From: Oscillospiraceae bacterium
Lineage (GTDB): Bacteria > Bacillota > Clostridia > Oscillospirales > CAG-272
Direction of reading: 5' to 3'
DNA length: 64,000 nucleotides
Assembly (NCBI GenBank): GCA_015063695.1
Contig: SVTQ01000005.1
Location: 5,572 to 69,571, forward strand
Shown here one piece after another: positions 3,338-53,736 of this stretch (its first letter is position 1; every line of letters begins with the position of its first letter). Position numbers and translations under genes: made by a program. A model generated the notes under the pieces. That model saw nothing but the letters and a program-made list of their open reading frames with translations, did not search any database and was not told where the DNA came from.

Positions 3338-3443
3338 ATAAATATAGATTAATTTTGCGATATCGCAAACTTTTTAGTTATTTACCTTGAAAAGTATAGA
3401 TTAATTTACACAACAGAACAAAATCCACGGGAAACCGAGCGAA

Positions 3444-47102: not shown

Positions 47103-47561
47103 TCACTTCAGCTCATACCGCCATTCGTCGTTTTCTTTATAATAAAAAAATTCACTTAAACTATCGTCCATGAAAACCTTGATCATATCAATCATATCCA
47201 AAGAAAGACGCTCGCCCATTGATAACAAATCATCAAGGCGCATCCAAAACACATCTCCTTCTTCAGACGACCTTATCTCACCGCTAAATCTATCGGTTTT
47301 ATAAAACAATGCTAAATACCGAGAGCCATCATCATTCACCCAACCTTTTGTTCCGCACAGAATCGGTGATGAAATAGTTAGACCGGTTTCTTCTTTAACC
47401 TCTCTGATTACCGCATCCGTTAACGATTCATTCATCTCAACATGTCCGCCGGGAAAACAAAGTCCTTTGTACTCATCATCAACTTTATCCTGAATTAATA
47501 CAAGATCACCTTTATATACTAAACACATATTGACGATTTCCGTCTTTTGTGCTCTATCCAT
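47103..47561 (-). CDS. NUDIX hydrolase
   Basis: Nudix box GGHVEMNESLTDAVIREVKEETGL. Start moved to ATG 47561 (AAAGGAGAA RBS). Confidence 0.85.
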   Translation of the reverse strand: MDRAQKTEIVNMCLVYKGDLVLIQDKVDDEYKGLCFPGGHVEMNESLTDAVIREVKEETGLTISSPILCGTKGWVNDDGSRYLALFYKTDRFSGEIRSSEEGDVFWMRLDDLLSMGERLSLDMIDMIKVFMDDSLSEFFYYKENDEWRYELK

Positions 47562-47679: not shown

Positions 47680-48033
47680 CTATTTCTCCAGTATTTTTTC
47701 TTTCAATGTTTTGCAACTTGCTATCAACATACGTCTAATACGCCCACAAAGATTTCTATAAAATTTATATGTTTTTTCATCAATACAACTCGTATTAAAC
47801 AATAATTGCAACCAACCTTCTGTTTCACTGCATTCTTTGAGAGCAATTTCAAATTTTGAAAGCATATCGGCTTTGCTTTGACCGTAATTGGCTTCACGTA
47901 TATTTGCATAAACACTGCTTGAGCTTTTGCGGAGTTGAAATAGAGAGTTAGATGGTGCTTTTATCTTTTGACAAAGCAATTCCATATCAGTTGCAAGCTG
48001 TTCTGAATAATCCAACAAGTAGTTTTTAATCAC
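47680..48033 (-). CDS. four-helix-bundle protein (23S rRNA intervening-sequence protein / Avd-like family)
   Basis: QLRKSSSSVYANIREANYGQSKADMLSKFEIALKECSETEGWLQLL matches the family core (..S..SI.ANI.EG......F...L.IA.GS..E....L), from memory. GTG start with a GGGGAG RBS. Confidence 0.7.
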   Translation of the reverse strand: MIKNYLLDYSEQLATDMELLCQKIKAPSNSLFQLRKSSSSVYANIREANYGQSKADMLSKFEIALKECSETEGWLQLLFNTSCIDEKTYKFYRNLCGRIRRMLIASCKTLKEKILEK

Positions 48034-48082
48034 TTGATCACTCCCCTTCAGAAAGCATTATATTATACTTTCATTAAAAAAT

Positions 48083-48296
48083 CAAGGCGAAGCCTTGTAT
48101 ATCATCCGCAACTTGTTGCGGTATATCATCAATGCGAAGCATTGCATATCATCAAGCTGCAGGAAAATACACGCTGACGCGTGATGAGATACAAGGGCGG
48201 CTTTTCGCCCTTGATGATATACACCACGCTTCGCGCGGCGATGATATGCCAAGCCTGCGGCTTGGATAAAAAATACACCAAGGCATACGCCTTGGT
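48083..48296. repeat. array of eight diverse hairpins joined by a conserved 10-nt linker (GTATATCATC x3, then GATGATATAC x3-4)
   Basis: Read directly. Hairpins at 48083-97, 48107-20, 48131-43, 48170-83, 48193-212, 48224-38, 48250-64 and 48277-96. Linkers at 48098-106, 48121-30, 48144-53, 48183-92, 48213-22, 48240-49 and 48265-76. Confidence 0.9.
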
Positions 48297-48303
48297 GTAT
48301 TTT

Positions 48304-48379
48304 TGGCAGGGGCAGAAGGACTTGAACCCACGACACCCAGTTTTGGAGACTGGTGTTCTACCAACTGAACTATACCCCT
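48304..48379 (-). tRNA. trnW: tRNA-Trp (anticodon CCA), CCA end encoded
   Basis: Minus strand: AGGGGTA TA GTTC AGTTGGTA GAAC A CCAGT CTCCAAA ACTGG GTGTC GTGGG TTCAAGT CCTTC TGCCCCT GCCA. The cloverleaf folds with one T-stem mismatch. It closely resembles Bacillus tRNA-Trp. Confidence 0.92.
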
Positions 48380-48393
48380 ATATCGACTTTGCT

Positions 48394-48422
48394 ATTGTAC
48401 CATATTATTTTGTATTTTGCAA
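48394..48422 (-). promoter_or_regulatory. sigma-A promoter of tRNA-Trp
   Basis: Minus strand: TTGCAA (48422..48417), 17 nt, TGgTACAAT with the -10 at 48399..48394. The tRNA 5' end lies 15 nt downstream of the -10 hexamer. Confidence 0.6.
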
Positions 48423-48497: not shown

Positions 48498-48549
48498 AAA
48501 AGTCTTTGAAGGGAGTTTGAGGGAAACTTTCTTCAGAAAGTTTCCCTCA
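48498..48549. repeat. copy 2 of the ~50-nt hairpin element placed just after a stop codon
   Basis: aaaagtctttgaagggagtttGAGGGAAACTTTCttcaGAAAGTTTCCCTCa. 13-bp stem. It ends 7 nt from the icd stop codon. Confidence 0.7.
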
Positions 48550-48555
48550 TAAAAA

Positions 48556-49767
48556 TCACAGAGTCTTTTCAAGATTTTCTCTGATTGCCGAGAAGAATTC
48601 GGAGGTTTTAACTGCTTTTGCTTCAAAGCCATCGGGGGTGAGGTTAACAAGGTCCTTTGTCATGATACCCGAGGAAAGGGTCGTCATACAAGCCGCCTCC
48701 AGCTTATCCGCGAAGGAAACAAGCTCCGCTATTCCGTCAAGTTCGCCTCTCTTACGGAGAGCACCGGTCCAGGCATAAATAAGAGCCATGGGGTTTGCAG
48801 TGGGCTCTTCGCCTTTAAGGTATCTGTAATAGTGACGTGTTACGGTACCGTGAGCCGCTTCGTATTCAAAGCAGCCGTCGGGAGATACTAAAACACTTGT
48901 CATCATAGCAAGAGAACCGAAGGCGGTGGAGACCATATCGCTCATTACGTCGCCGTCATAATTTTTCAGCGCCCAGATAAAGCCGCCCTCGCTTCTGATA
49001 ACACGTGCAACTGCATCGTCGATGAGGGTATAGAAATACTCGATGCCTGCCGCTTCAAAGGCTTCCTTATAGAATTCATTATATATCTCTTCAAAAATAA
49101 GCTTGAAGGTCTGGTCGTACTGCTTGGAGATAGTATCCTTTGTGGAGAACCAGAGATCCTGTTTTGTGTCAAGGGCAAACTTGAAGCAAGCGTGAGCGAA
49201 GTCCTTTATGGATGAGTCCTTGTTGAACTGACCTTGAAGAACACCTGCACCGTCGTAATCGCAAATGGTTTCACAGAAGCTCTCACCGTTTTCGCCTTCA
49301 AAGACAAGCTTTGCAACGCCCTTGCCGGGAACGCGGAATTCAGTTGCCTTGTAAACATCGCCGTATGCGTGACGGGCGATGGTGATAGACTTTTTCCAGG
49401 AGCGGACGGAGGGGATGATAAAATCGGTCATGATGGGAGCACGAAAAACAGTACCGTTGAGAATGTTACGGATGGTGCCGTTGGGGCTCTTCCACATTTC
49501 GGTGAGGTTATATTCTTCAACTCTCTGCTTATTGGGCGTGATGGTCGCACACTTTACGCCGACACCGTACTTCTTATTGGCATAAGCCGCATCGTAGGTA
49601 ACCTTATCCTTTGTTGCCTCTCTGTTCTGAAGGGAGAGGTCATAGTATTCGCATTTGAGGTCAATGAAGGGAGAGAGAAGCTCGTCCTTGATCATTTTCC
49701 AGAGAATACGGGTCATTTCGTCCCCGTCCATTTCGACGAGGGGAGTTATCATTTTAATTTTTTCCAT
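48556..49767 (-). CDS. icd: NADP-dependent isocitrate dehydrogenase (eukaryote-like subfamily II)
   Basis: The N-terminus [23 protein letters not shown]...VKCATITPN is typical of IDH1/2-like enzymes. Start moved to ATG 49767, after the aconitase stop at 49778. Confidence 0.92.
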
Positions 49768-49777
49768 GTTATGCCTC

Positions 49778-51703
49778 TCAGTTATCTTTAGTGTAAGGGA
49801 GGAGACCACCTGCAAGGAGCATACCGCACTGGCGGGAGGAGAAGTCGCCTGCAAGGGGAATTCTTATATTTTTTGTTACGTCGTAAAGCTCGAATTTTCC
49901 TGTTTCAAGGGAGCCCTTTGCATTTTCAATTACAAGCTCGTCATCCTGCTCTACCTTGTCATAGTCGTCTGCATTTACGAATGTGAGGGGGAGAATACCT
50001 GCGTTAATAAGGTTTGCCGCGTGAATACGCGCAAAGCTCTTGGCAACTACTGCGCGCACTCCGAGATAAAGGGGAACCAGCGCCGCATGCTCACGGGAGG
50101 AGCCCTGACCGTAGTTTGAGCCGCCCACTATCACAGTATTTCCTGCCGCCTTTGCTCTTTCAGGGAAGCTCTCGTCGCAAACTGCGAAGCAGAACTTTGA
50201 AAGGTGAGGAATGTTGGAACGGTAAGGGAGTATCTTTGCGCCTGCAGGCATGATATGGTCAGTTGTGATATTATCGCCAACCTTGAGAGTAAGCTTTGCG
50301 CTTATCTTGTCGGGCAGGGGCTCTGTTTCGGGGAATTCCTTGATGTTGGGGCCTCTTATGATCGGAATATTTGCCGCGTTTTCAGCGGAAGCGGGCATTA
50401 GCACTGCACTGTCGTCTACCTTGAAAGCTTCGGGCATTTCGATCTCGGGATAGTCGCCGAGCTCAGAGGGATCTGTAATATAGCCTGTGAGGGCGGATGC
50501 CGCCGCAACCTCGGGAGAAACGAGGTATACACCTGCGTCTCTTGTTCCGCTTCTGCCTTCAAAGTTGCGGTTGAAGGTACGAAGTGAAACACCTGCGGAG
50601 TTGGGAGAGAAGCCCATGCCGATACAGGGGCCGCAGGCACATTCAAGAACTCTTGCACCCGAGGCTAAAATATCGGAGAGTGCGCCGCAGTCCGCAAGCA
50701 TGGAAAGAACCTGCTTTGAACCGGGGGAGACGGACATGCTTACGCTGTCTGCAATCTTTTTACCCTTCAGAATAGCCGCAACGCGGAGCATATCGCGAAG
50801 GGATGAATTCGTACATGAGCCTACACATACCTGGTCAACCTTAATTTCCGAGAGCTCGGATGCGCTCTTGATATTGTCGGGAGAATGGGGACATGCAAGC
50901 ATGGGACGGAGGGATGAAAGGTCGATATCAATGATGCGGTCGTAAACTGCATCCGCATCGCTTTCGAGAGGAACGTAGTCCGCTTCCCTGCCCTGAGCTT
51001 TGAGGAATTCTCTTGTTATCTCGTCGGAGGGGAAGATCGAGGTCGTTGCGCCGAGCTCGGTTCCCATATTTGTAATGGTCGCTCTTTCGGGAACGCTGAG
51101 GGTCTTTATTCCCTCTCCGCCCCATTCGATGATAGCTCCCACACCGCCCTTAACGGACAGAATACGGAGTATCTCAAGGCTTACGTCCTTTGCGCTGACC
51201 CAAGGAGAGAGCTTGCCTGTAAGGTTTACCTTATACATCTTGGGCATTGTGATATAGTACGCGCCGCCGCCCATGGCAACCGCAACGTCCATGCCGCCTG
51301 CGCCCATGGCAAGCATACCGATACCGCCGCCTGTGGGGGTATGGCTGTCGGAGCCTATAAGAGTTTTACCGGGAATGCCAAAGCGTTCAAGATGAACCTG
51401 GTGGCAAATGCCGTTACCGGGGCGGGAAAAACGGATGCCGTATTTCTTCGCCACGGACTGGATATACAGATGGTCGTCTGCATTTTCAAAGCCCGACTGC
51501 AGTGTGTTATGGTCTATGTAAGCAACGGAAAGCTCGGTCTTTACGCGAGGCAGGCCTATCGCTTCAAACTCGATATATGCCATGGTGCCCGTTGCATCCT
51601 GAGTAAGTGTCTGGTCTATTCTGAGGGCAATTTCAGTCCCTCTTATCATTTCACCTTCAACAAGGTGGTTTTTTATTATTTTCTCGGCTATTGTAAGTCC
51701 CAT
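49778..51703 (-). CDS. aconitate hydratase (short, ~640-aa type)
   Basis: Fe-S ligand motifs GSDSHT, GSCTNSS and CGPCIGMG. Swivel domain at the C-terminus. Confidence 0.9.
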
Positions 51704-51704
51704 C

Positions 51705-52349
51705 TTAGTTTATCCCCCTCTTTTTGATACTGTCTCTTGCATTCTCAACGTGCTCAATGACAAGCTTCTCAACGAGCTTTGCGTCACGGGCGATAAGTGC
51801 TTCAAGAATTGCCCTGTGCTCCGCAAGAGTCTTTTCGGCTCTGCTTGTATGAGAAACGGAAGCTTTGCGGTACTTTACCACTTTTCTGTGAAGAGCTTCA
51901 AGGGTATCCGCAAGGGGAGCACATCCGCACAATCCGTAAAGCTTTTTATGGAACTCGCTGTCCTCGTTTTTGATATTGTCTGCGTTTTTCTTTATAGTAT
52001 AAAACTCCTGTAGGTCAAGTATATGACGGAGCTCTTCTATATCCTTTTCGGTTGCCTTTTCCGCCACCATCGCCGCAGCCATTCCTTCAAGGCGGAGGCG
52101 CATTTCGTATATTGTTTCAATATCCTCGTAAGAAATACCGACAACAACTGCGCCGCGGGGGCCCATTTCGATGATATGCTCCTGTTCAAGACGGCGGAGC
52201 GCCTCTCTTATGGGGGTTCTGCTGACACCGAGCTTTTCGGAAAGCTTCAGCTCTGTGAGAACTTCCCCTCTTTCGTATTCACCGCTGAGAATTTCTCTCT
52301 CCAATTTTTCGAAAACCTGATCGGCTATTGATACGCTTTTTGTTATCAT
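51705..52349 (-). CDS. GntR family regulator (FadR/FCD subfamily)
   Basis: wHTH LSEKLGVSRTPIREALRRLEQEHII plus a helical FCD domain. Start moved to ATG 52349 (AAGGAGA RBS). It sits inside the citrate synthase-aconitase-icd operon. Confidence 0.85.
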   Translation of the reverse strand: MITKSVSIADQVFEKLEREILSGEYERGEVLTELKLSEKLGVSRTPIREALRRLEQEHIIEMGPRGAVVVGISYEDIETIYEMRLRLEGMAAAMVAEKATEKDIEELRHILDLQEFYTIKKNADNIKNEDSEFHKKLYGLCGCAPLADTLEALHRKVVKYRKASVSHTSRAEKTLAEHRAILEALIARDAKLVEKLVIEHVENARDSIKKRGIN

Positions 52350-52359
52350 TGTTATCTCC

Positions 52360-53736
52360 TTATTTACGGGCAAATCTGTCGCCTGCAAGCTCTTTTATCT
52401 TATCCTCGATCTCGCCTGCGGAAATAGAGGAAACTCTTCCTTCCTCATATTCCTTATCGACCCATTCCTTGAGACGGGCAACGAGAGGGTCTCTCTTATC
52501 AACTGCGGCTTCTCCCGTCAGTCCGTAGTTGCCGTTTATCCAGTAAGCGATACCTGCAAGTCCTGAGGTCTTGCTTATCATTACGGATGCAGGACGGTTC
52601 AAAAGCTTTTCAGTATTGAAGATGTTATATATCTCCTCGTCCTTAAGAAGACCGTCTGCATGAATTCCCGCTCTTGTCATGTTGAAATTCTTGCCTGCAT
52701 AGGGGGTCATGGGAGGGATATCATAGCCTATCTCGTTTTTGAAGTAGTCTGCAATTTCGGTAATTGCCGTGGTATCCATTCCGTCAAGTGAGCCTCTGAA
52801 CGCAGCGTACTCAAATACCATGGCTTCGAGGGGAATGTTGCCCGTTCTCTCGCCTATACCGAGAAGCGAGCAGTTTACGGCGCATGCACCGAAGAGCCAT
52901 GCGGCGGAGGCGTTGGCAACGGCTTTATAGAAGTCGTTATGTCCGTGCCATTCAAGGTATTCGCTCTTTACGTCGGAGTAGTGCTGAAGACCGTAGATGA
53001 TACCGGGAACGCTTCGGGGAAGGGCAACCTCACTGTAAGGAATACCGTAACCCATTGTGTCACAGGCTCTTATCTTTACGGGGATGCCTGCATCCTTTGA
53101 CATCTTCATGATCTCGTTTACAAAAGGAACAACAAAACCGTAGAAGTCAGCTCTTGTGATATCCTCAAGGTGGCATCTGGGAACTACTCCTGCTTCAAAA
53201 GCATCTGCGATAACTCCGAGGTAGTGGTTCATTACCTCGCTGCGGGTCATTTTCATTTTCTTGAAGATATGGTAGTCACTGCAGCTTACGAGAATTCCCG
53301 TTTCCTTTATGCCCATATCGTGAACCATTTTGAAGTCCTCTTTATTTGCTCTTATCCACGTTGTAATTTCAGGGAATCGAAGTCCCAGCTCCTGGCACTT
53401 TTCAACGGCTTCTCTGTCCTTTTTACTGTAAATAAAGAATTCTGTCTGTCTGATAATTCCGTAGGGGCCGCCGAGCTTTGAAAGGAGCTTATAGATATCA
53501 ACTATCTGCTTTACCGTGTAAGGTTCAACAGACTGCTGACCGTCGCGGAGAGAGGTATCTGTTATCCATATCTCCTCGGGCATACCCGTAGGAACTCTGC
53601 GGTGGTTAAAGGGAATTTTCGGAACCTCGTCGTATGTATATATTTCTCTGTACAGATTAGGCTCAGCTACGTCCTGAAGGGAATATTGATAGCTTCTCTG
53701 TTCCAGAAGGTTAGTCTTATTGGATATTTCAAGCAT
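52360..53736 (-). CDS. IPMS/homocitrate-synthase family enzyme, probable Re-citrate synthase
   Basis: HMGL-like TIM-barrel motif ITDTSLRDGQQS and HGHNDF. The operon context with aconitase and icd fits the Re-citrate synthase known from Clostridium kluyveri. The specificity itself is inferred. Confidence 0.65.
   Translation of the reverse strand: MLEISNKTNLLEQRSYQYSLQDVAEPNLYREIYTYDEVPKIPFNHRRVPTGMPEEIWITDTSLRDGQQSVEPYTVKQIVDIYKLLSKLGGPYGIIRQTEFFIYSKKDREAVEKCQELGLRFPEITTWIRANKEDFKMVHDMGIKETGILVSCSDYHIFKKMKMTRSEVMNHYLGVIADAFEAGVVPRCHLEDITRADFYGFVVPFVNEIMKMSKDAGIPVKIRACDTMGYGIPYSEVALPRSVPGIIYGLQHYSDVKSEYLEWHGHNDFYKAVANASAAWLFGACAVNCSLLGIGERTGNIPLEAMVFEYAAFRGSLDGMDTTAITEIADYFKNEIGYDIPPMTPYAGKNFNMTRAGIHADGLLKDEEIYNIFNTEKLLNRPASVMISKTSGLAGIAYWINGNYGLTGEAAVDKRDPLVARLKEWVDKEYEEGRVSSISAGEIEDKIKELAGDRFARK

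Follow-up and report, generated by a model that had tools for sequence, protein, structure and literature searches.

Architecture of the locus

What is the ladder of hairpins that lies at positions 48083–48296, directly 3′ of a tRNA-Trp gene, in the 64-kb stretch of DNA analysed here (the window), and what could it be for? A preliminary description had reported a series of eight GC-rich hairpins, connected by a 10-nt linker whose orientation is reversed in the middle of the array, and the sequence reads exactly so. A search with the linker GATGATATAC, allowing at most one mismatch, gave 10 matches in the 64 kb, where 2.6 are expected by chance (none of 100 shuffles reached 10); six of them fall inside the array, at 48097, 48121 and 48144 on one strand and at 48183, 48213 and 48240 on the other, and the window holds a single copy of the array. 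The description had also failed to assign the array to a repeat class. Our searches agree with this: no Rfam family matched it, and the literature consulted on PF05635, on the linker and on palindromes or cassettes linked to tRNAs does not describe the element. In the Rfam scan, run at permissive E-values, only tRNA reached its gathering score; the best match overlapping the array, rli38, scored 27 bits against a gathering score of 49 and spans the end of the array next to the terminator and part of the tRNA gene, and no rRNA was matched between 47000 and 49000. What had been taken for a free-standing repeat in fact heads a gene cassette equipped with a promoter, genes and a tail of its own. 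The features of the locus are the following:

48394–48422, minus strand: promoter-like site of tRNA-Trp (TTGCAA, 17-nt spacer, TG-TACAAT); host context, outside the cassette
48304–48379, minus strand: tRNA-Trp (cca), Rfam tRNA at 63 bits; the cassette begins right after the encoded CCA
48269–48303, minus strand: terminator 1 (hairpin 8 of the preliminary description), with A-tract, 16-bp stem and T-tract
48264–48269, minus strand: TTATCC motif at the junction of terminator 1 with the array (columns 32–37 of alignment A2)
48250–48264, minus strand: P1 hairpin, CAAGCC-GCA-GGCTTG read on the minus strand; outermost, next to the terminator
48183–48249, minus strand: left half of the array, three linkers and hairpins A and B
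48240–48249, minus strand: linker L1, GCATATCATC
48224–48238, minus strand: hairpin A
48213–48222, minus strand: linker L2, GTATATCATC
48193–48212, minus strand: hairpin B
48183–48192, minus strand: linker L3, GTATCTCATC
48154–48183, minus strand: array centre, with hairpin C, spacer and anti-P1
48170–48183, minus strand: hairpin C
48164–48169, minus strand: TATTTT spacer of the array centre
48154–48163, minus strand: anti-P1, CCTGCAGCTT, complementary to the 5′ arm and loop of P1
48083–48153, minus strand: right half of the array, three linkers and hairpins D, E and F
48144–48153, minus strand: linker R1, GATGATATGC
48131–48143, minus strand: hairpin D
48121–48130, minus strand: linker R2, GATGATATAC
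48107–48120, minus strand: hairpin E
48097–48106, minus strand: linker R3, GATGATATAC
48083–48097, minus strand: hairpin F, promoter-proximal
48057–48085, minus strand: sigma-70 promoter of the cassette (−35 TTGATT at 48085–48080, 17-nt spacer, −10 TATAAT at 48062–48057)
47680–48033, minus strand: PF05635/TIGR02436 four-helix-bundle gene, Avd-like (117 aa, GTG start, GGGGAG Shine-Dalgarno)
47103–47561, minus strand: NUDIX hydrolase gene with its own promoter-like site

The complementarity of P1 (48250–48264) to the array centre (48154–48163) had escaped the preliminary description, as had the sigma-70 promoter adjoining the array and the PF05635 gene at 47680–48033. In the window copy anti-P1 pairs with the P1 positions AAGCCGCAGG, with one C·A mismatch. 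The stems, previously called unrelated in sequence, are not so: H1, H3, H7 and H8 have a common CAAGNC core and differ by compensatory changes, and across loci the stems are of recurrent types, e.g., AANNC-TTC-GNNTT. The G·U pair noted in hairpin A (48224–48238) on the tRNA strand is present in the window. As for termination, only the tRNA-proximal hairpin had been credited with a U-tract. When the hairpins were assessed as GC-rich hairpin plus U-tract, the tRNA-proximal one fitted, hairpins F and C of the window fitted weakly, and the remaining ones did not fit, nor did hairpin F of the long subfamily; that most hairpins are not terminators appears to hold, but hairpin F (48083–48097) is followed by ATTTTTT and has a terminator-like score on the tRNA strand.

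Terminator 1 could terminate transcription in both directions, since its stem lies between an A-tract and a T-tract. The same type of terminator is found behind other tRNAs (tRNA-Val in locus L087, tRNA-Leu in locus L088), and it therefore travels with the cassette. The TTATCC motif that follows is nearly invariant across loci. At the other end of the array, the −35 box of the cassette promoter overlaps the 3′ arm of hairpin F, an arrangement also seen in related loci. The NUDIX gene may be cassette cargo or a host gene, and the neighbouring genes in the window are housekeeping genes. Downstream of the window cassette no repeat of tRNA-Trp was found, and the match there to the conserved cassette tail was not above that of shuffles.

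A family of small cassettes

The ladder in the window belongs, with little doubt, to a family of cassettes. The array recurs in related genomes, where the preliminary description had proposed to look for it: the same layout is present at more than 110 loci in metagenome-assembled genomes (MAGs) of Oscillospirales. These small cassettes form a multi-copy family in Oscillospirales, rumen and gut Clostridia, apparently undescribed so far, and the ladder is their conserved non-coding head. The cassettes, about 0.7–1.4 kb in size, are laid out from the CCA of a tRNA, or from a pseudo-tRNA 3′ end, onwards and continue with an A-tract, a terminator hairpin, a T-tract and TTATCC. The array then runs from P1 through three units made of an xxATATCATC linker and a hairpin, a centre with anti-P1, and three to four units made of GATGATATxC and a hairpin; it is followed by a sigma-70 promoter, often by a PF05635 four-helix-bundle gene, and then by variable cargo (GNAT, immunity-like, MazG, lipoproteins). 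The tail resembles a tRNA 3′ half and ends in ..GCA or ..CCA.

In GTDB species genomes, 439 relatives of the PF05635 protein of the window were found. Among 80 fetched protein-anchored loci, 63 have the linker pattern LLLRRR(R) at −250 to −70 from the start codon, and most of those lacking it run off the contig end; a metagenome scan gave at least 51 further arrays. Gene callers turn the non-coding array into spurious ORFs or N-terminal extensions, as is seen from homologues called at 134–205 aa where about 115 aa would be expected. The four-helix-bundle gene occurs in only 16 of the 46 array-anchored loci, about one third, among the matches listed, and module 2 of L066 as well as L124 consist of array, promoter and cargo only. 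The array is hence the constant part of the cassette; among the proteins of the family only that of PF05635 is conserved, and it is optional. Cassettes stand in tandem at L017, L036, L066 and L075, and L006 carries tandem arrays with a 225-bp period and neither gene nor promoter. The distance from array to promoter varies by about 35 bp between subfamilies. A phage origin was also considered, and rejected: viral contigs were scanned for paired linkers, and of the 37 loci obtained only L124 was a true array, the others being unrelated coding or giant-virus repeats.

The fallback of the preliminary description had been that the array is a functionless local duplication artefact of the tRNA terminator. 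The CAAGGC core common to the terminator hairpin and to several array hairpins is what such an origin would leave; nevertheless, the occurrence of the architecture, with compensatory changes, at more than 110 loci in many species and contexts refutes this explanation, to which we give practically no credit.

Folding and covariation of the array

On both strands, the array folds far better than shuffled sequences (z = −10.0 and −9.3 with RNA parameters); with DNA parameters, z was −7.8. The proposal that the linkers pair in nested order, as a ladder of four-way junctions, stood in part: this is the minimum-free-energy fold, but linker–linker pairing is predicted by energy alone, and its variable positions are uncompensated. 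Across an alignment of 65 arrays, 92% of the linker cells are paired, but only because the linkers hardly vary; 40 of 62 sequences are unpaired at columns 55/267 and 43 of 65 at columns 135/184, and the linker–linker covariation is below that of all 500 shuffles. The ladder also crosses the helix between P1 and the array centre, which covaries. The stems are paired in 97.1% of the cells, versus 76% in shuffles, with a covariation score of 0.51 versus 0.15, and none of 500 shuffles reached either value; double changes were observed in 25 of 35 pairs, the P1/anti-P1 helix among them. The array is genuine and non-random, with a conserved structure that is under selection and a variable sequence.

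Not one of 69 arrays repeats a hairpin, and 153 distinct hairpins were counted in them. Whole units are inverted between the two halves, loops included (26 GNA/GNNA vs 5 TNC/TNNC loops in the left half, 0 vs 32 in the right). Throughout the family, three alternative folds come out at about the same energy: the P1 hairpin, the P1/anti-P1 helix and the ladder. The G·T and A·C mismatches are balanced overall (27 vs 23), so that no RNA strand can be assigned, and a rough stem count in the left half gave 24 G·T vs 6 A·C.

Compensatory change is a classic RNA signature, and the array could be read as a structured RNA, an explanation that we regard as unlikely. It would then be a tRNA 3′-trailer of about 220 nt, made by read-through from the tRNA promoter and folded either into a domain of several hairpins that the P1/anti-P1 helix closes or into the linker ladder; a role as protein scaffold or sponge (e.g., for the PF05635 protein), or as a processing or stability element separating the tRNA from the cassette mRNA, would be just as unlikely. 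The strong covariation in the stems and in the long-range helix, the folding z of about −10, the equal-energy folds that look like a switch, the G·U pair of hairpin A on the tRNA strand of the window and the excess of G·T in the left half all point in this direction; moreover, Avd, a relative of the PF05635 protein, works with RNA, and tRNA promoters are strong, so leaky termination would suffice to give transcripts. Nonetheless, the array is preceded by a strong 16-bp terminator with T-tract and followed by the cassette promoter, and so sits in the expected transcriptional gap. In addition, the polarity of linkers and loops inverts mid-array, so that one RNA would show two different motifs, the near-equal G·T and A·C counts are unlike those of typical structured RNAs, and no Rfam family matched. 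The dyad symmetry of the array, together with the balanced mismatches, speaks for folded DNA rather than for a single strand of RNA.

The position of the array would suit a regulatory role just as well, since it lies just upstream of the promoter, with the −35 box overlapping hairpin F. With the same low probability as the RNA, the array might be a control region acting as duplex DNA, in which the 10-bp linkers would be operator or activator sites, possibly for the four-helix-bundle protein on its own promoter; they would regulate the cassette promoter and shield it from the highly transcribed tRNA, the palindromes being spacers or cruciforms that absorb supercoils. The right-half repeats do adjoin or overlap the −35 box, the linker resembles the extended −10 region of the cassette itself, TATGATATAAT, sites in both orientations are natural for duplex-binding proteins, and the balance of mismatches fits selection at the DNA level. 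By contrast, the shift of about 35 bp in the array–promoter distance between subfamilies, and the arrays of L006, which persist and amplify without promoter or gene, fit such a region poorly; covariation of P1 with anti-P1 over about 120 nt has no role in a duplex, and mere spacers need no compensatory maintenance.

Linkage to tRNA genes and proposed mobility

The tie to tRNA 3′ ends, suspected from the window, holds across the family: 42 of 66 protein-anchored loci, and 17 of 36 array-anchored loci among the matches listed, have an intact tRNA immediately upstream, in every case on the same strand. In the former group the tRNAs represent 21 anticodons and end 260–310 nt upstream of the gene. 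Elsewhere, the array is preceded by tRNA 3′ fragments with variable 5′ ends; because of these ends, retro-mobility by 5′-truncated copies of tRNA read-through transcripts was considered. Nearly the same cassette is found behind different tRNAs. L016 and L080, both of one genome, have 1224 bp in common at 89.5% identity, one following a tRNA-Ser fragment and the other tRNA-Val. L087 (after tRNA-Val) and L088 (after tRNA-Leu) have 1062 bp in common at 92%. The breakpoints differ among cassette pairs, being CCA|AAAA in some and TTTT|ATCC in others. A conserved 3′ tail was recognised in 15 loci with differing cargo, and degenerate copies of tRNA 3′ ends lie downstream of the cassette in L042, L068, L072, L075, L078 and L154; these copies and the conserved pseudo-tRNA tails may represent a distal direct repeat of the tRNA 3′ part, and none was detectable in the window.

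No integrase or transposase recurred in 186 clusters of neighbouring ORFs (149 representatives searched against Pfam; best 25 of 181 families), and the homology blocks of 1.0–1.3 kb hold only the four-helix-bundle gene and cargo, with no integrase. For the window locus no empty site or excised circle was found, the contigs with the neighbouring NUDIX gene either carrying the cassette or being too short. An invertible switch based on P1 and anti-P1 came into question, since all units would become direct repeats if the left half were inverted; it was rejected, as no array with all linkers in one orientation occurred among about 110 examined.

The array itself could be a miniature transposon, MITE-like and targeting the flank of tRNA terminators, its halves being abutted terminal inverted repeats with three subterminal transposase sites each (cf. 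the ends of Tn7 and Mu) and its association with genes secondary. The global dyad symmetry (P1, CAAGCC-GCA-GGCTTG, against the reverse complement of hairpin F, CAAGGC-GAA-GCCTTG), the 3 + 3(4) sub-repeats and the gene-less arrays of L006 resemble such an element. We consider it quite improbable: the array is almost never apart from the promoter/gene module or from the tRNA/tail junction, there is no target-site duplication around the array itself, no associated transposase was seen in the best 25 of 181 neighbour families, and the 64 kb contain a single copy.

The reading that we favour, tentatively and ahead of the others, is that the array is a folded-DNA site that moves or controls the cassettes, i.e., a cis-acting recombination or attachment module of mini-cassettes mobilised in trans. 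Site-specific recombination where the tRNA 3′ end meets its terminator would move the cassettes, through a recombinase supplied in trans and a still hypothetical catalytic step. Once a cassette is excised as a circle, its attachment region would consist of the tail together with the crossover point, terminator 1 and the array. The array would be an arm of this region, with the invariant 10-bp linkers, three per orientation, as putative protein-binding sites, and the distinct, compensated GC-rich palindromes and the P1/anti-P1 helix could give the arm a defined fold when single-stranded or cruciform. Such an arm may be likened to integron attC, where structure is conserved and sequence is free, or to the arm sites of lambda-type attP; to our knowledge, no known attP arm has GC-rich palindromes between its arm-type sites. 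The PF05635 protein readily suggests itself as the candidate factor that would bind the array.

A more far-reaching proposal, which we hold doubtful, is that gut and rumen Clostridia possess a gene-capture system of a new, integron-like kind. Here, mini-cassettes with promoters of their own would dock between any tRNA and its terminator by means of the generic pseudo-tRNA tail and of a folded-DNA ladder that switches between a form closed by P1/anti-P1 and a form with paired linkers, and the Avd-like PF05635 protein would act as specificity or architecture factor.

Implications

If the array is a recombination module, uncultured and abundant Oscillospirales of rumen and gut would carry an overlooked cassette-exchange system without an integrase of its own, of which the non-coding array would be the hallmark. 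This would account for one source of the variation between strains in small accessory genes, e.g., those for immunity-like proteins, acetyltransferases and lipoproteins, and would provide a second natural recombination site, besides attC, defined by fold and not by sequence. It would also give the PF05635 four-helix-bundle family a testable function outside diversity-generating retroelements. Members of this family also occur inside 23S rRNA intervening sequences, and in the gene-capture proposal the orphan four-helix-bundle/23S-IVS family would gain a mobility role at stable-RNA genes. Even as a regulatory or RNA element, the array would be a clean, deeply sampled and strongly covarying motif missing from Rfam.

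Comparison with known systems

CRISPR arrays have direct repeats of at least about 23 nt, unique non-palindromic spacers, a leader and cas genes. The array described here has a 10-nt repeat that inverts mid-array and palindromic "spacers", and the ORFs of 100 aa or longer in the roughly 8 kb flanking it on each side include no cas gene; it was therefore not assigned to CRISPR. With REP/BIME elements it has in common the clusters of short palindromes, the alternating orientation, the recognisable linkers and the location at 3′ ends of transcription units. However, the REP palindrome is conserved and dispersed genome-wide, whereas in the present family it is the linker that is conserved, with variable palindromes and one array per cassette; the single array in 64 kb and the 153 distinct hairpins in 69 arrays led us to reject this class. 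In type III toxin–antitoxin systems (ToxIN), too, a small protein gene comes after a non-coding repeat array and a terminator-like hairpin. This class was rejected as well: the units here are inverted and not direct RNA repeats, a promoter lies between array and gene, and the PF05635 protein is optional and not ToxN/AbiQ-like. The only PADLOC match of the four-helix-bundle protein was a weak one (E = 0.006), to the candidate family PDC-M49A.

The protein belongs to the same family, PF05635, as Avd, the accessory protein of diversity-generating retroelements, and the ORF of 23S rRNA intervening sequences (PMC10053308). As in the latter, the gene is carried by an insertion attached to a stable-RNA gene, but its site is behind a tRNA and not within 23S rRNA. 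In contrast to diversity-generating retroelements, neither a reverse transcriptase nor, in a non-exhaustive search, a template/variable repeat pair was seen next to the cassettes; no reverse transcriptase was found in the best 25 of 181 neighbour families, nor in the five window ORFs scanned against Pfam, the other window ORFs having been read by eye only.

Similarities are also found with tRNA-integrating islands, tycheposons (bioRxiv 10.1101/2020.12.28.424599) and integrase-less cis-mobilisable elements (CIMEs), which likewise insert in fixed orientation at tRNA 3′ ends, accrete in tandem and include cargo-only members that need mobilisation in trans; their partial tRNA repeats at the far end may have a counterpart here as well. 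The elements described here differ from them in being about 1 kb in size, in having no integrase in any of those sampled, in using more than 20 tRNA identities, and in possessing the hairpin-and-linker array and the Avd-like gene. The linkers, in turn, recall the arm sites of lambda-type attP, being repeats of about 10 bp, in several copies and both orientations, about 50–270 bp from the presumed crossover at the tRNA end; the known arms differ in that they are not known to have covarying GC-rich palindromes between their sites.

With integrons the differences are several. No IntI gene was seen nearby in the fetched loci (among the best 25 of 181 neighbour families), docking occurs at the 3′ end of a tRNA gene and not at attI, and the cassettes carry a −35/−10 promoter, whereas integron cassettes are mostly promoterless. 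The attC site is bounded by the inverse core RYYYAAC and the core GTTRRRY; no such R″/R′ sequence (GTTRRRY) is present at the array boundaries, where the edges of the A2 consensus are TTATCC/P1 and GATT, with linkers GATGATATAC. Furthermore, the array is about 215 bp long, with 7–8 hairpins, and is placed 5′ of the genes, next to the cassette promoter. On the other hand, the cargo is likewise small and very diverse (GNATs, immunity-like proteins, lipoproteins, unknowns) and the cassettes likewise stack in tandem; like attC, the array is an imperfect palindrome with conserved structure and a sequence that is free except for short conserved boxes, and it is plausibly read, as attC is, in the form of a folded single strand.

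The Hairpin Array and Its Surroundings

On re-reading, the plus-strand sequence of 48083-48296 was identical to that of the preliminary description, which had seen there a ladder of eight hairpins joined by a conserved 10-nt linker. Linker counts and folding against shuffles confirmed this: with at most one mismatch, the 10-mer GATGATATAC occurs 10 times in the 64 kb window (2.6 copies expected by chance; 10 reached by 0/100 shuffles), and six of these copies lie inside the array, three per orientation, while folding of the two strands gave z = -10.0 and -9.3 as RNA and z = -7.8 as DNA. Read on the tRNA strand, the elements are arranged as follows:

48304-48379, minus strand: tRNA-Trp(cca), by ARAGORN and Rfam
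after the tRNA CCA, minus strand: 16-bp terminator between an A-tract and a T-tract (terminator 1), then TTATCC
next, minus strand: hairpin P1, CAAGCC-GCA-GGCTTG
left half, minus strand: three units of linker xxATATCATC (L) plus hairpin
centre, minus strand: hairpin C, TATTTT, CCTGCAGCTT
right half, minus strand: three units of GATGATATxC (R) plus hairpin
promoter, minus strand: -35 TTGATT, 17-nt spacer, -10 TATAAT
47680-48033, minus strand: 117-aa ORF, with Shine-Dalgarno site

Upstream of the tRNA (48556-53736) are isocitrate dehydrogenase, an aconitase-like ORF, a GntR regulator and a homocitrate/citrate-synthase-like ORF; this TCA-cycle-branch block places the window cassette in a housekeeping region, not in a prophage. 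A long and perfect palindrome at 48503-48562, GAGGGAAACTTTCTTCAGAAAGTTTCCCTC, separates the tRNA promoter region from the 3' end of the isocitrate dehydrogenase gene; it is probably the terminator of that gene, and explains several spurious miRNA-type Rfam matches.

The 117-aa ORF encodes a four-helix-bundle protein (PF05635/TIGR02436) whose closest solved homologue, 2RLD, is uncharacterised; the family resembles the DGR accessory protein Avd (PMC10053308). The protein gave 3363 matches to relatives, the best 120 of these at 79-99% identity, and the relatives occur in quite different genomic contexts. Many homologue gene calls are 134-205 aa long instead of the usual ~115 aa, a length compatible with start codons placed within the array; in the sole long call checked, the homologue P0004 (205 aa), the extra length is at the C-terminal end instead. 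A figure legend in a large clustering study lists a '23S rRNA IVP' family among CRISPR-array-associated genes (PMC10910872), and it is our speculation that hairpin-and-linker arrays upstream of PF05635 genes might score as CRISPR-like in repeat finders.

Recurrence of the Array

A scan of GTDB species genomes with the PF05635 protein gave 439 relatives; ruminant and human gut MAGs assigned to Oscillospiraceae, Acutalibacteraceae or 'Eubacteriales' were the source of all 80 loci fetched. In nearly every locus with enough upstream DNA, the same array was present at -250 to -70 from the start codon, with the linker order LLLRRR in 43 loci and LLLRRRR in 20, the fourth R being the promoter's own TATGATATAAT in some and elsewhere a degenerate linker, GATTATATAC, followed by one more hairpin. 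The association with tRNA 3' ends, suggested from the window, was borne out, since an intact same-strand tRNA ends 260-310 nt upstream of the gene in 42/66 loci (21 different anticodons), and most of the others have a tRNA 3' fragment at the same place. Independently of the protein, a search of metagenome contigs for two L-type linkers gave at least 51 true arrays; among the matches listed, an intact tRNA was found upstream in 17/36 and the four-helix-bundle gene downstream in 16/46. The array is thus not a local accident, and its conservation refutes a functionless duplication, a reading to which we assign practically no weight.

Some arrays stand without the four-helix-bundle gene: besides those among the listed matches, module 2 of locus L066 and locus L124 have array, promoter and cargo, and L006:2080-2930 carries four tandem gene-less arrays with a 225-bp period, connected via a tRNA T-arm fragment, GTGGGTTCAAGTCC, and a decayed terminator. 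The constant part of the module is therefore array plus promoter, the four-helix-bundle gene being a frequent but optional first gene, and L006 demonstrates that amplification of the array unit needs neither promoter nor gene.

Cargo and Boundaries of the Cassette

In many loci the four-helix-bundle gene and a second gene overlap at their stop and start codons (ATGA), the second gene varying between loci: GNAT acetyltransferases, WapI-like immunity protein, DMP19-like, DUF6678 and YcxB-like proteins, MazG, YbjQ, and many small lipoproteins and membrane proteins. The unit was defined by pairs of loci carrying the same cargo at different places. L016 and L080, in one genome, have 1224 bp in common at 89.5%, one after a tRNA-Ser fragment and the other after tRNA-Val. 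L087 (after tRNA-Val) and L088 (after tRNA-Leu) have 1062 bp in common at 92%; their homology starts within the last 25-26 nt of the tRNA, at ~70% identity there, and is near-identical from the terminator A-tract onward. The 1287 bp common to L075 and L044 start with TTTTTTTATCC and end with GGTTCAAAAGTGAGACGTACTGCCAAAAA, a pseudo-tRNA 3' half. Fifteen 'long-class' cassettes of differing cargo end in a common ~57-nt tail, GGACACCTTTTGTTCG..AGACACCTTTTATCACGTTTAAGGCA, followed by a locus-specific terminator with A-tract, and several cassettes have downstream a degenerate copy of the resident tRNA's 3' end and then a different terminator, presumably the native one. Tandem cassettes occur in L017, L036, L066 and L075.

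For the window cassette, no tRNA-Trp repeat was found downstream, the best match to the conserved tail was no better than shuffles, and the contigs with the neighbouring NUDIX gene, in which an empty site was sought, were all cassette-occupied or too short to tell. Among 201 neighbouring ORFs in 186 clusters, no integrase or transposase family recurs; that the array, with its two inverted halves, consists of abutted transposon ends, i.e., a MITE, seems to us very improbable. The features of the module are those of a non-autonomous mobile cassette of small size which docks at the junction of tRNA 3' end and terminator and carries a tRNA-like tail, and we are confident that the array is the head of this tRNA-linked family.

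A Conserved Fold with Orthogonal Hairpins

The consensus structure obtained by RNAalifold from an alignment of 65 distinct arrays (A2) comprises local hairpins and a long-range helix in which the 5' arm and loop of P1 pair with a segment just before the first right-half linker (anti-P1). Compensatory changes, which the preliminary description had proposed to look for, were found in A2 as double changes at 25/35 pairs; 97.1% of cells are paired (76% in shuffles) with a covariation score of 0.51 (0.15 in shuffles), values reached by 0/500 shuffles, and pairing collapses to 29-40% in all slid controls. The P1/anti-P1 helix changes as a block, AAGCCGCAGG with CCTGCGGCTT versus ATTGCGAAAGC with GCTTTCGCAAT, and GACA/TGTC and AAGTC/GACTT are additional variants; one divergent array, L179, read by eye, may represent a third class, in which AACCGAAGCG is paired with CGCTTCGGTT. 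The local P1 hairpin covaries too, hence P1 has two alternative partners.

The nested pairing of linkers proposed earlier is the minimum-free-energy structure of the array at 48083-48296, but has no compensatory change in A2. Its helices are paired in 92% of cells solely due to near-invariant motifs, linker columns 55/267 are unpaired in 40/62 sequences and columns 135/184 in 43/65, variable positions are uncompensated, and linker-linker covariation is lower than in every shuffle. Ladder and P1/anti-P1 helix cross each other, and when enforced have about equal energy family-wide (-73.3 vs -71.5 kcal/mol). The ladder may be an alternative state but is not the fold visibly maintained by selection.

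The same hairpin occurs twice within one array in 0/69 arrays, which together contain 153 distinct hairpins, and one type can sit at different positions in different arrays; this points to selection for mutually orthogonal stems.

RNA or DNA

A strong terminator precedes the array and the cassette promoter follows it, and the units of the array are inverted whole, loops included. On the gene strand, loops of unique hairpins are GNA/GNNA in 26 cases versus TNC/TNNC in 5 in the left half, and 0 versus 32 in the right half, so that the array has true dyad symmetry; its reverse complement likewise reads LLLRRR. C-GNA-G triloops are classic extra-stable DNA mini-hairpins. In structured RNAs, G·U is tolerated much more frequently than A·C, and stem mismatches here are balanced (27 G·T vs 23 A·C). 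Position, inverted units and balanced mismatches argue against a single functional RNA strand, and a structured RNA serving as tRNA trailer, with which the conserved pairing would be compatible, is in our opinion unlikely. The P1/anti-P1 covariation, spanning ~120 nt, requires a single-stranded form; a duplex operator or insulator array serving the adjacent cassette promoter appears similarly doubtful. Taken together, these arguments point to a DNA that would fold when single-stranded, or extrude cruciforms, on either strand.

Variant Arrays and Insertions

Two further hairpin arrays lie upstream of a five-tRNA operon (L066:220-310 and L066:360-480), one with a different linker, GATTCCATAC, in three copies, the other with four GATGATATxC units in one orientation and without left half; there are thus half-arrays as well as other linker 'dialects'. 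Between array and gene (about -230 to -60 from the start codon), L041 and L046 contain insertions of ~115-135 bp and differing sequence, exactly in the -10 region of the cassette promoter and each between duplicated TATGATATAAT, as if a small element targeted this linker-like motif. The P1 loop of L017, L082 and L239 holds a ~45-nt GC-rich insert, TAGGGGTTCCCCGAAGCGAGCTTGACGAGCTTTGGGGGTTCCCG, and in L066 and L082 a 35-nt hairpin, GAATGTATAACTCGCC..GGCGAGATATACATTC, replaces hairpin A; hairpin positions tolerate nested insertions. In L007 the tRNA-Ser terminator hairpin recurs downstream of the cassette (2726-2760 and 3408-3440) with identical stem and reverse-complemented loop (TTTCAA vs TTGAAA), each copy then reading ..TTATCC, which is a loop flip between two copies of one palindrome. 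In L183, a 310-aa ORF encoding an IS-type DDE (rve-like) transposase (1000-1950, array-oriented coordinates) directly follows an array with disrupted last hairpin and promoter, apparently as the result of an IS having inserted secondarily in a cassette.

Possible Mechanism and Comparison with Known Systems

Of the readings considered, the most likely, proposed tentatively, is that the array would be the arm of an attP-like region on which a recombinase acts in trans. Such a region would form in an excised circle, where the tail (a mimic of the tRNA 3' half) would be joined through the CCA|AAAA junction to terminator 1 and the array. Proteins would bind at the invariant 10-bp linkers, which occur in both orientations, the arm would owe a defined architecture to the orthogonal palindromes and the P1/anti-P1 helix, and the generic tRNA-like tail would explain why docking is possible at more than 20 different tRNAs. 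The recombinase would necessarily be supplied in trans; a candidate array-binding factor is the Avd-like four-helix bundle, as the only conserved element-encoded protein.

Such cassettes are abundant in uncultured gut and rumen Clostridia; they suggest a role at stable-RNA genes for the orphan PF05635 family, and the array would be a second DNA site in nature that is defined by its fold. Rfam has no model for the array, and the searchable literature gave no description of the element. Readings of it as CRISPR, REP/BIME, type III TA, DGR or 23S-IVS were rejected. In its way of working, the family comes closest to integron attC sites and cassettes, and also resembles the integrase-less satellites of tRNA-integrating islands (tycheposons, CIMEs). 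Unlike integrons, however, the cassettes have no IntI and no R'/R'' boxes and carry their own promoters, and unlike tRNA-integrating islands they were not found to encode an integrase; by these defining features they belong to neither, and the element is best classed with tRNA-targeted integrative cassettes, as one with a cis element of a new type.
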